From Eledone cirrhosa (lineage: Eukaryota), in assembly GCA_964016885.1 (NCBI GenBank), contig OZ024742.1, positions 45,260,001-45,324,000 of the forward strand: 64,000 nucleotides of DNA, given 5' to 3'. The first letter of the stretch is position 1, and every line of letters begins with the position of its first letter. Of this stretch, positions 16,391 to 42,947 are shown one piece after another. The notes under the pieces are model-generated. The model worked only from the letters and a program-made list of their open reading frames with translations. It ran no database searches and was not told where the DNA came from. Made by a program: the position numbers and the translations under genes.

Positions 16391-16407
16391 GTATATCTGT
16401 ATGTATG

Positions 16408-18460
16408 TGTAGCAGGAGTGGCCTCCCTTGTTGTGACACTCACATCCCCAATAGATTAACGCTCTCTAGACAGGAAGTAGAACCCTTTCTGTAACTTCCG
16501 GTCAGAACCCTATAAAACTAACAACTTTAAGTTCTCTCTCTCTCATTTGCCTTTTCGGCTCCTGGCCTTTGCCAGGCGTCTTCGCCCAGGCGCGTCTTTT
16601 GCCAGGCGCGTTCGCCTGGCAACCAAAACGGTAACTAATAACTTTGCTTCATTCTTTCATCTATTCATTGACATGTCAACCTTACTGTTCTATATATCCA
16701 CAAATTGTTAATTAAATATTATACACACAAATCACGTCTCATGTTATATTCATACACACCAGTATTTTGTTATAAGTGGTGACCCCGAAAAAAGAAAAAA
16801 ATAGCAGAATCTGGTGTGTGTGAGTAACATTACGAATACGCAGCAAAATTTTATTGACAAACTATGAAAATACGCAGTCAAAGACACGAACACACGTACA
16901 TGTGAAATTCTCATTCAGACAGACTCTTTTTCCTCACGCATCCACTAACTGTCGCAGTTCACTGTATATATATATATGTTTCTCATTTCTTACAACGAAC
17001 ACTTTAAAAACAAACAAAAAAAAATAGAAATTTGATTTTTTTTTTTTTTAAACATTTCAACAGGAACATTTATTTTCGATGAATCTCAACCATTACCTTT
17101 TTTTTCATCGTTTTCTTCATCGTTCAAGTTTTTTTCAAAGTTCACACCAAAAAAAAAAATTGAACTCGCCATATTTGTTATACTAAGTGAAGCCTTTCTT
17201 TCTTTTTCATCATTGTCACTTTCACACACACATTTTTTCAAAATGGCTGCCAACGACCTGTTGCACTATCATTTTCTCGCTCAATAGAAATATTTTTTTC
17301 TTTCAACTTAACCTTGTATTGGCACGTGTAGGCTGCACAATTCTCGATTCACTGAGATAGCCGGACGCCATGAGATAACGTTTCTCGCCAAGGATTCTCC
17401 AGCCTTAAGCTATATTCTCCTATTTGCCGGTTTAAAAATTTACCACGTAAATTTGCCGTTGAAAACTGCGCATTTATTCAGAATGCTTATTTCTTTGGTC
17501 GCTGGCCTCTTGACCCTTCCAGGTCAGCGCATTCTCAACATCGACCATCAACTTCGGCTGTTATTTCTAGCACTTTGCGCAACTCATTTTTTCTGAAAAA
17601 ATTATTTTACTGTGAATTTAAACATCGAGTACGCTCACTCCGCGAGACAACAACATCAACAGCAACACAGATTCATCAACAACCAAAACCAGCAGAACAA
17701 GCCAGAGAATTTATTTTTGCAGCACTCTTCCTGTGATAAAATCCATTCGGAGGTTGGAAATTTCACGTTACACCACCTGCATTCATTCTATGGAACACAC
17801 TTTCTTTCCTGCTGTCGTGTGATTGCACACCTGTGAACAATATTTTGAACATTTGAACTTTGAGCTCTTCTTTTACTTTATTACATTGTATCTTTTAGTG
17901 ATGGATAGATAGATGTCCAGTCGTTCTCTGGCCAAGAGCGGTTGACTACCTTGATATCTATCATTGATTTTTGCAAACATTATTATTTTTTTTTTTTTTT
18001 CGTAATTTTCATGCCTGTTACAACATTCTCGCCAACTTACTACATACATATTTCATTCGATTTTATATTTTAAAAATCTGGCGCGGGATAATGTAGCAGG
18101 AGTGGCCTCCCTTGTTGTGACACTCACATCCCCAATAGATTAACGCTCTCTAGACAGGAAGTAGAACCCTTTCTGTAACTTCCGGTCAGAACCCTATAAA
18201 ACTAACAACTTTAAGTTCTCTCTCTCTCATTTGCCTTTTCGGCTCCTGGCCTTTGCCAGGCGTCTTCGCCCAGGCGCGTCTTTTGCCAGGCGCGTTCGCC
18301 TGGCAACCAAAACGGTAACTAATAACTTTGCTTCATTCTTTCATCTATTCATTGACATGTCAACCTTACTGTTCTATATATCCACAAATTGTTAATTAAA
18401 TATTATACACACAAATCACGTCTCATGTTATATTCATACACATCAGTATTTTGTGAAATA
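16408..18460 (+). mobile_element. Non-autonomous LTR retrotransposon, copy 1 (tRNA-Trp PBS)
   Basis: Near-identical direct repeats 16408-16774 and 18092-~18458. PBS TGGTGACCCCGA at 16777-16788, purine tract before 18092, non-coding interior of about 1.3 kb. Confidence 0.9.
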
Positions 18461-27536: not shown

Positions 27537-28185
27537 CAAAGGAATTGTGATAAGGAACCAGATCGACCATAACGCACGACAGTACTCAATACTTAGGGTA
27601 GTAGAGTGGGAAATAGGAAAAAGTATGACCCCGACGGCAGAGCTCAAGCCGTTTTGACGGCTATTTCTGGACTAAATTAGAATGTTTAGCCTGGTGAATA
27701 AATAGCCGAACTTTGGTAACCGCATGCAAACACAGATTGCGTAGGACTTACCTCGCCCTCAAACCCCATAACGACCGGGTGGGTAGACAATGGCTGATAA
27801 CCCCCCCCCCCCCTACACACACACACTTGCCGAATAAGTTAGGAGATACCCCAGCTTACATAGGTAGATGTATCTCTTTTATTTTCCTCTATGCCTTCAT
27901 CTTCCCCCTGTCTCATCCTATCACTTCCTCGTCTGCTTTTCCCCTTTCGCCTACCCCGATGCAGCCCATCGGGCCTTTGTAGCATCAGTTCCCCCACCCC
28001 TGTAATTTTAAGATAGAATTGGCCGAATACGTTTTACTAACTACTTATAGCAGATGTGTTAGACCCCTTTAATTTTGTTTCAGTTTTATTACTACTCCAT
28101 TTCTACAATTTTTTTCTATTCTCAACTTATTAACCTGTAATAGTAAGATAGCATGTGTTGTATCAGATGAAAGAATGGTATTTAA

Positions 28186-30022
28186 CTAATGTATTGGTAC
28201 GCGATGGGGCCCACCAACAGCCCCGGCGGACAGAATGGAGAAGGCGTTTCCCCGGAGGACGGCAAGGTAGACGCGCTGGAAAAGCCACTCCAACTCGTGG
28301 GGTTCACACCTGAGGCTGACCAGCTCAGCGCCTATAGTGGTGAGTAAAGAGGTAGCCCTGGGGCCGAGGACACCAGAAGTCTCCACTGCCAGGGGAACGA
28401 CCGCAATTTAAGGAGTTTGGCCCCCTCAGCCTTACGTGCAGCAGAACCTGGGTCAGTCGCAGACTGCACCAGGTTGCGGCTGCAGAAAGTGTCGGTGCAA
28501 GTGACATCCCAGACGAGGGCTTTGCCACCGCGGAACGGGAAGATGTTCATGCCATCTGGCCTTTTGCCGCCCCCTCGATCCAGCCCCACCGGCTCGAGCT
28601 GGGAAGGGAAGCCTGCAGCGTCCAAGCCATGCTTAATGACCTCGTTGAGGGCAGCATGGCGTGGAATGCGGCCTGCACTGTGGCGACAGGAAAGTGGGTG
28701 GAGGCCGAAAGCGTCCACGGTGGAACCGCAGCGACATTGGTGTGGCTGGCAGATCCGGAGGCCGAGCCTCAGGGAAACGCCGATTCGCAGGCTATGGTTG
28801 TCTAGCTGCGTGCCAGTGGGTAAGGAGGGCAGGGCATGGAGCCAGGTACCACTGTGGGGTTTGGAGACCGCACGAAAACAAGCAAGGCGGTGCTGGTCGA
28901 GCTAGCGCGTGAGCCTGTCTGAGGCCAGGCTGCACTGGATGGCATCCCAAGTGCGTTGGGGGGACTTGACGTCAACAAGGGGAGAAGGAGGAGGGACGTC
29001 TACTGGGCTAAGTCCCAGCCGGTCCCACGTCTCACAGGCGGCCTCGCGTTCTCTGAACACAGAGGGTTCTGTTGTGTTTTGAAGAACCCTGCTGACGAGG
29101 ACGTGGCATGATATTACCGACGAAAGATACGCCGGCAAAGCTAGTGAGATCGGGGACCGGAGGCCAAGGCCGACATACCTGACCGGTAAAGTGGCCTGTT
29201 GCCACCCTATGTCGTCAAACTTGACGTTGCATATCCCCTCGGCTGCTGCTCGGATACAAGTATCGAGGTCAGCGAGGAGAGATATCTGGCTGTAGCATGG
29301 AGCGCTGTGGAGTGTATAGAGGAGCTTTGGCATGGCGAAGCAGTTCCTCAGCAGAAAGAGAGCAGGGTGGCCGTCAATCAAGCCCAGTCGGCTCGTGAGA
29401 GTCTGGAGCTGTTGAAGCCTGGACCTGATGGTGGAGCGGATAGCCGGCGGGTGGATCGGTGACCCGATGATGAGGACATCCTCTTTGGGGGTCACCTGAA
29501 CCTGGCGGAGAATGGACTGCACGTCCAAGACGGAGGCTGCAAAGCTCGCAGCATCGAGGCTGACGTTCACCACCTCCGACTTGGCCGAGTTGACCTGGAG
29601 GCCGATTGCCGCCAGGGCAGGAATCACCGATTGAATGTCTTGGCAGACCGTCCGTACGGGCCCGCCCAACGTAGCATCATCCAGATACCAAACGTTGAGA
29701 GGGGCCGTGATACTCCGGGCGATGTGGTCAATACCAAGGGCGAACAGGAGAGGTCCCAACGGGTCGCCCTGTTGGACCCCAGTAGCCGAGGGTATGACCG
29801 TATCAGCAGCTAGGAGCATGCTCGGGGCTCCATATGACAGGTAGGCCAGCGGGTAGGCAGAGGGGGTTCGGCTGAGGCAGGCCTCGAGCAGATCATCCCC
29901 GGCATAAAGAGTTAAAGGCATTCCTCATGTCAAGCTTGACAATGAAGTGCCTGGAGTCTCTGGATGCCGGTACCAATGGGCAGCTGCTGAAGAACTGCCT
30001 GATTGCATGAGCGGCTCCTTCA
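28186..30022 (-). mobile_element. CRE-clade non-LTR retrotransposon (RT + CCHC + restriction-like endonuclease), 5' truncated
   Basis: KLDMRNAFN, GVQQGDPLGPLLF, WYLDD, GLGL, CRCG...H.LSC...RH, KRPDG...WDVTC and QR...RGNA. GC-rich, with frameshifts and stops. Confidence 0.85.
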
Positions 30023-39850: not shown

Positions 39851-40011
39851 TGGTTTTGTAATTTAATATTTCATGGTTGCAATTCTTGTGCACAGCCTAT
39901 GTAATTGTATATTGTTTAGTTGCAATTCTTATTACAGTTTTTGACACTGTATACTGTATGTGTACAGTCATATATTCCTGTGTCACAGATCTTCGTCACA
40001 GTTTTTGACAC

Positions 40012-42023
40012 TATAGCGAAGATACTGGGTTGTATGAATGTAACAAGGAGACATGGTTTGTGTGTATAATATTTAATCAACAATTCAACAGTATAGTTGA
40101 CATGTCAAAGAAATAGATGAAAGAATGAAGCAAAGTTAGTAGTTACTGTTTTGATTGCCAGGCAAACGCGGCTGGCAGAAATCGCCTGGCGAAGGCCAGG
40201 CGCCGGTAGGGCTAATGAGAGGGTGAGAACTTAAAGTTATTAGTTTTATAGGGTTCTGACCGGAAGTTACAGAAAGGGTTCTACTTCCCGTCTAGATGTT
40301 GTTAATCTATTGGGGTTGTGAGTCACAACAAGGGGGGCTACTGCTACATAACCTCCCGCCAGAATTTTAGAATATAAAAATCGAATGAAATATGTAGCAA
40401 GTTGGCGAGAATGTTGTAACAGGCCTGAAAATTACGACAAAAGAATGTTTGCAAAAATCAATGATAGATATCAAGGTAGCCAACCGCTCTTGGCCAGAGA
40501 ACGACTGGACATCTATCTATCCATCACCCAAAGATACAATGTAATAAGGTAAGAGAAGAGCTCAAAGTTCAAATGTACAAAATATAGTTCACAGGTGTGC
40601 AATCACATGACAGCAGGAAAGAAAGTGTGTTCCAGAGAATGAATGCAGGTGGTTTCTGTTCTGTGGTATATCGTGAAATTTCCAACCTCCGAATGGATTT
40701 TCTCACAGGAAGAGAGCTGCAAAAATAAATTCTCTGGCTTGTTCTGCTGGTTTTGGTTGTTGATGAAGCTGTGTTGCTGTTGCTGTTGTTGTTGTCTCGC
40801 TGAGTGAGCGTATTCGGTGTTTAAATTCACAGTAAAAAAAAAGATTTTTCGGAAAAAAATGAGTTGCGCAAAGTGCTAGAAATAACAGCCGAAGTTGATG
40901 GTCGATGTTGAGAATGCGTTGACCTGGAAGGGTCAAGAGGCCAGCGACCAAAGAAATAAGCATTCTGAATAAATGCGCAGTTTTCAACGGCAAATTTACG
41001 TGGTAAATTTTTAAACCGGCAAATAGGAGAATATAGCTTAAGGCTGAAGAATCCTTGGCGAGAAACGTTATCTCTGGCGTGCGGCTATCTCTGTGAGTCG
41101 AGATATCTCTGTGAGTCGAGAATTTGAGCTGCCTACACGTGCCAATACAAGGTTAAGTTAGGTTAAAAAAAAATATATTTCTAACGCGCGAGAAAATGAT
41201 AGTGCAAGTGTGAAAGTGACAATGATGAAAAAGAAAGGCTTCACTTAGCATAATTATTGGTGTGAACTTTTGGGGAAAAAAAAAAAATAACTTGAACGAT
41301 GAAGAAAACGATGAAAAAAAAATAAACAATGGTTCTTCGAAAATAAATGTTCTTGTTGAAATGTTTTTAAAAAAATATCAAATTTCTTTTTTTGTTGTTA
41401 TTTTGGAAGTGTTCGTTGTAAGAAACGAGAAACATATATATATATATATCGTGAAATGCGACAGTTAGTTGATGCGTGAGAGAAAAAGTCTGTCTGAACG
41501 CGAATTTCACATGTGCGTGGTGTGTTCGTTTCTTTGACTGAGTATTTTCATAGTTTGTCAATAAATTTGTTGTGTATTCATAATGTTACTCACACAACAC
41601 CAGATTCTGCTATTTTTTATTTTTTCGGGGTGACCACTTATAGCGATGAACGGCTGCGTGTTCGTATCACGTCAGGGTTACCAATATAGCGGAGTACTCG
41701 TGCAATGTATGAATGTAACAAGGAGACATGGTTTGTGTGTATAATATTTAATCAACAATTTAACAGTATAGTTGACATGTCAAAGAAATAGATGAAAGAA
41801 TGAAGCAAAGTTAGTAGTTACCGTTTTGATTGCCAGGCAAACGCGGCTGGCAGAAGACGCCTGGCGAAGGCCAGGCGCCGGTAGGGCTAATGAGGGGGTG
41901 AGAACTTAAAGTTATTAGTTTTATAGGGTTCTGACCGGAAGTTACAGAAAGGGTTCTACTTCCCGTCTAGATGTTGTTAATCTATTGGGGTTGTGAGTCA
42001 CAACAAGGGAGGCTACTGCTACA
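40012..42023 (-). mobile_element. Non-autonomous LTR retrotransposon, copy 2
   Basis: LTRs 40012-40348 and ~41685-42023, TSD ACAC (40008-40011 and 42024-42027), PPT ggcgggagg, PBS at 41625-41636. Interior homologous to copy 1. Confidence 0.9.
41652..41683 (+). other. Copy of tRNA-Trp 3' end including CCA (extended PBS)
   Basis: ggctgcgtgttcgtatcacgtcagggttacca versus recalled metazoan tRNA-Trp end GGCTGCGTGTTCGAATCACGTCGGGGTCACCA (3 differences). Confidence 0.8.
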
Positions 42024-42182
42024 ACACTATCTGCTGTATGTGTAGTCTTATACACCTACAGCAGATAGTCTTATATAGTCTTATATTCCCGTGTCACATA
42101 TCTTTATCACTGTCAGCTGTATGTGTAAAGCATTGCAGTCCCTGTTGTATATCTTATTCTACAGTCAAGCTTCAACAACAGG

Positions 42183-42873
42183 TTTCTTTATGGTGAAAAA
42201 GATATCAATTTCTCCCTCATGTGGTTCTGCCTTTCTTTATGGTGAAGAAGATATCACTTTCTCCCTCATGTGGTTCTGCCTTTCTTTATGGTGAAGAAGA
42301 TATCACTTTCTCCCTCATGTGGTTCTGCCTTTCTTTATGGTGAAGAAGATATCACTTTCTCACTCATGTGGTTCTGCCTTTCTTTATGGTGAAGAAGATA
42401 TCACTTTCTCCCACATGTGGTTCTGCCTTTCTTTATGGTGAAGAAGATATCACTTTCTCCCTCATGTGGTTCTGCCTTTCTTTATGGTGAAGAAGATATC
42501 ACTTTCTCCCTCATGTGGTTCTGCCTTTCTTTATGGTGAAGAAGATATCACTTTCTCACTCATGTGGTTCTGCCTTTCTTTATGGTGAAGAAGATATCAC
42601 TTTCTCCCTCATGTGGTTCTGCCTTTCTTTATGGTGAAGAAGATATCACTTTCTCCCTCATGTGGTTCTGCCTTTCTTTATGGTGAAGAAGATATCACTT
42701 TCTCCCACATGTGGTTCTGCCTTTCTTTATGGTGAAGAAGATATCACTTTCTCCCACATGTGGTTCTGCCTTTCTTTATGGTGAAGAAGATATCACTTTC
42801 TCACTCATGTGGTTCTGCCTTTCTTTATGGTGAAGAAGATATCACTTTCTCCCTCATGTGGTTCTGCCTTTCT
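42183..42873. repeat. 49-bp minisatellite
   Basis: Unit tttctttatggtgaagaagatatcactttctccctcatgtggttctgcc, about 14 copies. Confidence 0.97.
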
Positions 42874-42947
42874 TCCCACAGTTCAAATCTTCATATGTGT
42901 TACCTTATATCTGTTATAAGTATCACACCCCAGTTTCCTTTGTATTC

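Follow-up and report, generated by a model that had tools for sequence, protein, structure and literature searches.

A family-wide tRNA-Trp-derived primer-binding module in a non-coding retrotransposon of Eledone cirrhosa, and its likely origin by read-through of the primer tRNA

The window analysed here, 64,000 nucleotides (nt) of sequence OZ024742.1 of Eledone cirrhosa, contains on its minus strand a 2012-bp non-coding, non-autonomous long terminal repeat (LTR) retrotransposon (positions 40012-42023), a member of a family that we call family T. The element's 5' LTR is followed by two stacked units, each consisting of an LTR end and a PBS (primer-binding site); the first PBS is a 32-nt complement of the 3' end of mature tRNA-Trp that extends past T-loop position 58 and is substituted there. 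Here, we show that this module, including the T at position 58 (T58), is inherited family-wide and is not an event of the window copy. We propose that the module likely arose once, when plus-strand strong-stop DNA read through 1-methyladenosine at position 58 (m1A58) of the tRNA-Trp primer, and that the family has carried the product ever since.

Results

A stacked LTR-end/PBS module at the 5' junction

On the element strand, the 5' LTR is followed by these parts, listed in reading order:

41685..41691, minus strand: terminal heptamer of the LTR (the integrase end), first copy; the same heptamer ends the 3' LTR in 27 of 30 scored copies
41684, minus strand: 1-nt spacer between the first heptamer and PBS1
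41652..41683, minus strand: PBS1, 32 nt complementary to positions 76 to 45 of mature tRNA-Trp, CCA included; we compared it with genomic tRNA-Trp genes
41646..41651, minus strand: V2, a 6-nt remnant like the inner end of U5 (the unique 5' region of the LTR), with letters as at the end of the U5 patch V plus heptamer in copy L089
41639..41645, minus strand: second heptamer copy, followed by an AG spacer (41637-41638)
41626..41636, minus strand: PBS2, an 11-nt relic PBS homologous to the working PBS of a related family, family S

A preliminary description of this stretch, made from the sequence alone, had reported an LTR end, a 32-nt tRNA-Trp complement with CCA, a second LTR end and a second PBS, and we confirm this order base for base; direct reading likewise bears out the T, in tRNA sense, at T-loop position 58 (window position 41665). 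A short spacer had also been described before the second heptamer. It is present, but is itself a piece of a U5 end and so not a mere spacer, and this V2 remnant is almost unchanging across 30 copies, in contrast to the V patch of the LTR described below.

In all 30 copies with both ends scorable, the 3' LTR ends at the first heptamer, which is exact in 27 copies and carries one substitution in the other three, and unrelated flanking sequence lies beyond it. Because all 3' LTRs end at this point, minus-strand synthesis must be primed at PBS1 and not at PBS2, and PBS2 is never found at an LTR boundary in the 30 scored copies. PBS2 and the second heptamer are thus a relic inside the leader. The second heptamer of most other copies is a two-substitution variant identical to the LTR end of family S, and PBS2 has one mismatch against the canonical tRNA-Trp 3' end and none against the type of tRNA-Trp gene represented by locus L060.

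The module is fixed and inherited throughout family T

We searched a genome of 3.0 Gb in 1796 contigs, in which the window lies on contig 3 at 45.26 Mb. A 201-nt query across the junction gave 40 full-length matches at 92-100% identity, the window copy included, among 1668 first-look candidates, and all 40 copies (the window copy and 39 others) carry the stacked module with T58. A 34-nt core, with any base allowed at tRNA positions 72, 67 and 58, has 452 exact genomic matches, against none for a reversed-pattern control; this number and the 40/40 recurrence lead us to dismiss a chance origin of the module. Among the first 100 of the 452 listed cores, 80 have the window's three bases at positions 72, 67 and 58, nine have the tRNA base at 72 only, eight at both 72 and 67, and one at 67 only, while the remaining two carry a transition at the position-58 site. 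Ninety-eight therefore keep T58, and restoration of A58 was seen in none of these 100.

These results change how the window copy is to be understood. The module and T58 are fixed in the family, so that the window copy does not itself record a read-through event, as had been suggested; nor is there support for the idea that its stacked units record successive replication cycles, since the whole module is inherited. Position 58 had also been expected to be unusually variable across copies, and within family T this excess is absent.

Stacked repeats of this kind can recombine again, because two copies on contig 1 (L153 at 315.54 Mb and L155 at 357.55 Mb) have three stacked units, in which a 46-nt unit of spacer, PBS1, U5 remnant and heptamer is doubled; the two PBS1 copies of L155 differ in subtype. 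Two further arrangements were observed among the copies. At L162/L163 (contig 1, 364.154-364.157 Mb), a distance of 1737 nt separates two PBS1 cores in an LTR-internal-LTR-internal-LTR tandem, the middle LTR of which has PBS1 directly after it. In L148 (contig 2, 279.74 Mb), the U5 remnant, second heptamer and PBS2 are deleted, and PBS1 runs into an A-rich leader.

PBS1 compared with genomic tRNA-Trp genes

A tRNA-Trp T-arm pattern has 117 matches in the genome, most of which lie in large tandem arrays on contig 4 (about 277.40-277.44 Mb and 353.39-353.49 Mb); degenerate members of these arrays include L103 (T58) and L060 (G72). The tRNA-Trp(CCA) genes detected by ARAGORN on fetched loci are 72 nt long and have A58, with L103 as the one aberrant exception, and they vary at positions 57 (G or A), 67 (G, or A in L048) and 72 (C, or G in L060). 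PBS1 of the window copy differs from the commonest gene at three positions: 58 (A to T), 67 (G to A) and 72 (C to T). The A at position 67 is also present in the real gene L048. Bases other than A at position 58 occur in full tRNA context in five matches, namely array member L103 and four retro-copies.

The element's acceptor variant together with A58 has no genomic match, and the element's exact T-arm and acceptor string without CCA has three, all of them mutated family T copies, with no gene or short interspersed element (SINE) found as a source. The contrast with the host genes drawn in the preliminary description is upheld: the genes have A58, and genomic pattern searches found no gene or SINE with the element's variant, on which ground we rejected a tRNA gene or SINE as the source of T58. 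Because CCA is present, the orientation is that of the complement, and the copy abuts the LTR end, the evidence supports reading the 32-nt stretch as a reverse-transcribed copy of mature tRNA-Trp.

Position 58 is the most often changed base in other Trp-primed families

Since position 58 is fixed within family T, any test for enrichment of a change there that is not gene-encoded rests on other families. Extended tRNA-Trp copies with CCA adjoin LTR ends in several unrelated families. A 34-nt pattern comprising the T arm, acceptor, CCA and a 6-nt LTR end common to one group of families, with at most two mismatches, returned 33 extended copies, eight of them perfect. Fifteen have a base other than A at position 58 (9 T, 4 C, 2 G), while the 26 other tRNA positions scored hold 17 mismatches and the 6 LTR positions hold 10. 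The excess of change at position 58, a base that is not in a CpG, is roughly 20-fold in this set of copies, which includes related ones. In this survey of LTR-PBS junctions, then, the expected prominence of position 58 is found: it is the most often changed base (15/33), and mostly to T.

Five different T-loop triplets occur among the extended copies, and three copies that look like one family (L102, L112 and L116) read C, G and T at position 58. In other families, the 5' ends of the tRNA copies form three groups, at positions 45-47, 36-39 and 28-33. The latter two groups lie near positions 37 and 26, and a stop at position 26 may underlie the last.

One of the Trp-primed families, family X, is autonomous and gypsy-like, with DUF7041 gag, RVP and RVT_1 domains (loci L032, L034, L036, L044, L047 and L051), and has an inherited 32-nt Trp PBS that ends at tRNA position 45. 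As a candidate autonomous partner of family T it was rejected, its LTR being unrelated and only the PBS being in common; family X was the sole autonomous Trp-primed family examined, and no autonomous partner of family T was identified. By eye, the heptamer region of the window copy (41685-41691) and the U5 ends of family X are complementary to 5-6 nt of the 3' strand of the tRNA-Trp D-arm, which could reflect an extra primer contact or chance.

Sister lineages and rewriting of PBS1

A copy of family S lies in the same window:

16407..18440, plus strand: family S copy with LTR end, AG and 11-nt canonical Trp PBS, without tRNA extension; its LTRs are about 82% like those of family T

Thirty further family S copies were aligned and have the same simple junction of LTR end, AG and 11-nt Trp PBS. 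The relic of family T (second heptamer, AG and PBS2) corresponds to this working junction of family S.

Within the broader group of family T cores, some PBS1 sequences are closer to the tRNA than that of the window copy. Seventeen of the first 100 of the 452 listed cores have the tRNA base at position 72, and their position 67 is that of isodecoder i in eight and of isodecoder ii in nine; both of these "repaired" PBS1 forms match real tRNA-Trp isodecoders exactly. Of sixteen copies picked for the tRNA base at 72, most fall into a sister lineage of family T whose leader is different. In the G72/C67 copies, which form the youngest sister lineage, PBS1 agrees with the complement of tRNA-Trp 45-76 in 31 of its 32 bases, and the sole difference is at position 58. 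LTR pairs of this type differ by 0-1 mismatch in 312 nt in 5/5 copies, and median LTR pair divergence is 0.006 in the G72/T67 type (7 copies) and 0.019 in the main lineage (23 copies). We rejected the explanation that PBS1 decays from a perfect copy for the G72/C67 variants, as these copies have the most similar LTR pairs. L152 and L160 have the same V patch and are 1.7% divergent elsewhere, yet are unlike at position 67. Several source lineages, 1.4-3.7% apart, are active.

These patterns suggest that the first 18 nt of PBS1 are occasionally inherited from the primer, and that the 19th base, position 58, never is, as would be expected if synthesis stops ahead of m1A58. Since the first 18 nt are sometimes rewritten to real isodecoders and the 19th is never restored, later replication cycles would stop at position 58 as usual. 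What tells against extensive rewriting is that the "rewritten" PBS1 lineages are partly distinct and have a different leader; some of the 17 in 100 thus represent descent, and the rate is uncertain.

Anatomy and class of the element

The remaining parts of the window copy are as follows:

42024..42027, no strand: 4-bp target-site duplication on the 5' side of the element, the same 4 nt as 40008-40011
41685..42023, minus strand: 5' LTR of 339 nt, with TG start, TA end and an imperfect terminal inverted repeat, found as a blastn self-match
41692..41706, minus strand: V, the hypervariable U5-subterminal patch of the 5' LTR, unlike the V of the element's own 3' LTR (40019-40031)
40349..41625, minus strand: internal region without coding capacity, with one stop-free frame of 149 amino acids and no Pfam match
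40352-40360, minus strand: polypurine tract ahead of the 3' LTR, a purine run read from the sequence
40012..40348, minus strand: 3' LTR, ending in the terminal heptamer (40012-40018), with a V patch (40019-40031) of a type unlike that of the 5' LTR
40008..40011, no strand: 4-bp target-site duplication on the 3' side, matching the 5' side

The LTRs, about 337-339 nt long, were located by blastn, repeat finding on the window being dominated by 44-, 32- and 49-bp satellites, and they are 98.1% identical over 318 nt (41706-42023 against 40031-40348). Their TG...TA termini match at five of six inverted-repeat positions. The 4-bp duplication of the window copy has the fixed length seen throughout family T, where it is perfect in 26 of 30 scored copies. 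The 1.28-kb interior holds no gag or pol coding capacity, its lone stop-free frame being negative in Pfam. With two direct LTRs, a fixed-length target duplication, a tRNA-complementary PBS, a polypurine tract and no gag or pol, the element is a non-coding, non-autonomous LTR retrotransposon.

ARAGORN and Rfam detected no tRNA in the element, with two sub-threshold chance matches only. Two other accounts of the junction were tried and rejected: self-priming of the Tf1 type, for which the rest of the element offers no complement of the module of at least 8 nt except A/T runs and a palindrome within V, and a stable RNA fold at the junction, the stability of which is not above that of shuffled sequences (z = -1.5).

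A hypervariable U5 patch and unlike LTR ends

The LTR ends of the window copy had been described as unlike despite a close match elsewhere, and this is correct: the 13-15 nt before the terminal heptamer differ completely. This is a phenomenon separate from the tRNA scar, and consists of a family-wide hypervariable patch and of chimeric LTR pairs. The patch, V, spans 11-16 nt, with a conserved U5 block on one side and the terminal heptamer on the other, and provides the two most variable 12-nt windows of the element: in 29 aligned copies their nucleotide diversity (pi) is 0.47 and 0.31, where the mean is 0.040. Copies that are nearest neighbours, at 2% divergence, frequently carry V patches unrelated to each other; in very young copies, V differences lie mainly in the last 4-5 nt. 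Only mild variation is seen at the equivalent site in family S, in an alignment read by eye.

When the two LTRs of the same copy are compared, V is identical in 16 of 30 copies, differs at 1-3 positions in seven and is of a different type in seven (the window copy, L064, L066, L076, L081, L087 and L090). All seven of these chimeric copies keep perfect 4-bp target duplications, which argues that such LTR pairs were made during retrotransposition and not by recombination between insertions. Their remaining LTR differences fall mostly in the repeat (R) and U5 regions (5 of 6 in the window copy, 8 of 10 in L081 and 27 of 28 in L090). The V mismatch of the window copy is best read as the product of two co-packaged RNAs, which would have undergone R-U5 transfer in the manner of Ty1 and Ty3 and left a heteroduplex in the 5' LTR only. 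This heteroduplex model does not explain L076, whose LTRs differ in the U3 region too.

Our best guess is that V diversity stems from an error-prone step of local effect, either close to where the minus strand starts or during plus-strand transfer. We think it unlikely that V and the unlike LTR ends reflect lineage sorting instead, with an unconstrained spacer diverging in old master lineages, and ectopic recombination between insertions. V types are partly linked to the LTR haplotype around the TATA box, the several active source lineages stand as far apart as noted above, and family S varies mildly at the same place, all of which would fit such a history; but the diversity of V far exceeds the mean of this 2-kb non-coding element, close neighbours often carry unrelated V patches, the internal remnant V2 is nearly invariant, and ectopic recombination would break the target duplications that all seven chimeras retain intact.

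Another variable stretch of the LTR, close to the TATA box, was considered as a hotspot and rejected, being a two-haplotype dimorphism with compensatory changes in a hairpin. The two LTR haplotypes differ at LTR positions of about 90-130 (window 41895-41935 and 40220-40260), where paired changes keep the hairpin, and they are partly linked to V type.

Surroundings of the window copy

The element lies among tandem repeats. A 49-bp repeat (42183-42874) is the upstream neighbour of the 5' LTR, and a 32-bp satellite of about 92 register positions (42795 to about 45900) adjoins the element on the same side; a strong skew of C over G at 42-46 kb coincides with these two repeats. A large array with a 44-bp unit extends from 50288 to about 62000 and comprises about 260 register positions that are 90-100% identical to a 300-nt reference. 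A palindromic hairpin in the 5' flank of the element (42018-42077) scores 23.6 bits against a microRNA precursor model with a cut-off of 57, and is probably part of the neighbouring tandem repeat. Elsewhere in the window, a 2-kb block (28001-30000) has a GC content of 0.57, against 0.27-0.47 in the rest.

Discussion

The proposal that the module is a fossil of reverse-transcriptase read-through, first made for the window copy, does not hold as an event of that copy, and stands at the level of the family. The tRNA copy is mature in form, with CCA, lies in complement sense contiguous with a U5 end, and extends past position 58; the host genes have A58, a young lineage matches the tRNA at 31 of 32 positions, and position 58 is a hotspot of change across families. 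We propose the following order of events in the founding accident. In an S-like ancestor, plus-strand strong-stop synthesis would have overshot m1A58 of the tRNA-Trp primer, with the polymerase inserting A opposite m1A58 and copying the tRNA back to position 45. This overshoot product could then have been rescued if its 3' end primed, by microhomology, at the U5 end of a minus strand extended beyond the PBS. Extension from there would have copied the final bases of U5, then the heptamer and AG, and then the old PBS followed by the leader, in the same order as observed today, and the rescue would have duplicated the LTR end and left the old PBS behind.

Several points weigh against this proposal. 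A single substitution from one founding event is indistinguishable from an ordinary mutation, and the family offers a sample of one. The first spacer is a single nucleotide, while the second unit and family S have AG, and a simple read-through predicts AG twice. Position 45 is not known as a hard stop, and the PBS of the unrelated family X ends there too, with A58 in 11 of 11 exact copies. The presence of m1A58 in this organism's tRNA-Trp is assumed because it is general among eukaryotes. Not every cross-family copy is independent, as the set includes two pairs with identical strings and kinship was left in. Finally, array member L103 has T58, though alongside A57, and its D stem and acceptor end both differ.

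Because family X has an inherited 32-nt PBS with A58, a long PBS may instead have been acquired by template switching, with position 58 mutating later. Under this scenario, which we judge distinctly unlikely, the donor was a co-packaged element, for instance of gypsy-like family X, that already had a 32-nt Trp PBS; ordinary mutation later gave rise to T58 and to both acceptor changes, and the second LTR end and PBS were the recipient's own. Family X would be a plausible donor in that its fixed PBS has the same end at position 45, its LTR terminus is similar and its spacer ends in T, so that the 1-nt spacer of the first unit is closer to X than to the AG of family S; its invariant A58 also demonstrates that long PBSs can be inherited without change at this position. 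Yet X and T are alike only in 34 nt around the PBS, position 47 is T in X but C in family T and in the tRNA genes, and two switches would be needed within about 50 nt. Also against capture followed by ordinary mutation, PBS1 of the youngest lineage differs from the tRNA only at 58, the very position that is the hotspot across families. We regard it as extremely improbable that a tRNA gene fragment, pseudogene or tRNA-derived SINE was inserted at the DNA level beside the LTR, unrelated to priming: tRNA-Trp genes are abundant, as the arrays and their T58 member attest, but genes are without the CCA present in the copy, the copy begins exactly one base past the LTR end in complement orientation and covers only the 3' 32 nt, all 3' LTRs stop where it begins, its variant was found in no gene or SINE, and neither ARAGORN nor Rfam detects a tRNA in the element.

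The components of the read-through proposal are already known: the PBS, the m1A58 stop, misincorporation at m1A, Ty-type transfer and non-autonomous LTR elements have all been described. Our limited literature search, which did not extend to supplements, found no published report of a fixed, working PBS region derived from an overshoot product with a relic LTR end and PBS behind it, of tandem LTR-end/PBS units, of a genome-wide excess of position-58 changes in PBS extensions, or of PBS rewriting confined to 18 nt or a hypervariable U5 patch. To our knowledge, a localised hypermutation zone of the kind that V may be is undescribed for LTR elements.

The role of m1A58 as a plus-strand strong-stop signal is known mainly from human immunodeficiency virus type 1 (HIV-1), in vitro and in cell lines. 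If our proposal is correct, what follows when this stop fails has been preserved in the germline DNA of a non-model, animal-type genome, and a single overshoot gave a family of hundreds of copies its working PBS region. Such copies would offer a route, from sequence alone, to ask which tRNA modifications block a retrotransposon polymerase in vivo and what is inserted opposite them, how often primer sequence is inherited, and which isodecoder primes. V lies beside the integrase end and points to an error-prone step, local in its effect, that present models of reverse transcription do not foresee. It is a tentative and, for now, doubtful idea that the Trp-primed LTR elements of this genome act as natural recorders of reverse transcription, through rewriting of the first 18 nt from the isodecoder that primed a new copy, repeated misreading of m1A58 that re-draws base 58 in some families, and error-prone diversification of V at minus-strand start or plus-strand transfer.

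The known systems closest to family T share features with it and differ from it in others. The PBS of HIV-1 is likewise the complement of a tRNA 3' end (tRNA-Lys3), and primer copying normally ends 18 nt in, before position 58 (PMC8599865, PMC13191261). There, plus-strand strong stop depends on m1A58, and DNA that overshoots is not complementary once it has been transferred (PMC8599865). Overshoot is nonetheless known in vitro, where HIV-1 reverse transcriptase makes minor stops further into tRNA-Lys3, including at position 37 (PMC13191261). In family T, unlike in HIV-1, the putative overshoot product is fixed in a genomic family, where it serves some 450 copies as their PBS region; tRNA-Trp is the primer, position 45 would be the end of the overshoot, and the LTR end is duplicated.

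The bases found at position 58 can be set beside the signature that m1A leaves in complementary DNA. Misincorporation at m1A depends on the 3' neighbour, and an m1A-A context gives a low C signal (PMC4787781); similarly, T is the commonest change in our cross-family set (9 of 15). Unlike in that study, C is second (4 of 15), and our copies are germline DNA made by retrotransposon enzymes and not complementary DNA made by laboratory enzymes.

In Ty1 and Ty3, the first strong-stop DNA that runs into the tRNA is a dead end and primer sequence is mostly not inherited; transfer relies on complementarity in R-U5, with a minus strand into which U5 and R have been copied (PMC5371799). Transfer of this kind in family T would explain both the low level of PBS rewriting and the LTR pairs that are unlike only in R-U5. 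Family T differs in that some rewriting of the first 18 nt is apparent, and in being an animal-type family, known here from its sequence and probably mobilised by a gypsy element.

With its two LTRs, PBS, polypurine tract and lack of coding sequence, family T resembles terminal-repeat retrotransposons in miniature (TRIM), large retrotransposon derivatives (LARD) and Helenus elements, and its 4-bp duplications are as in animal Helenus and gypsy (PMC10886601). Helenus elements also contain a tRNA-like sequence, which is sense-oriented, lies inside the LTR and is unrelated to the PBS (PMC10886601). The tRNA copy of family T, by contrast, lies outside the LTR, in complement orientation, is limited to the 3' half, and occupies the priming site.

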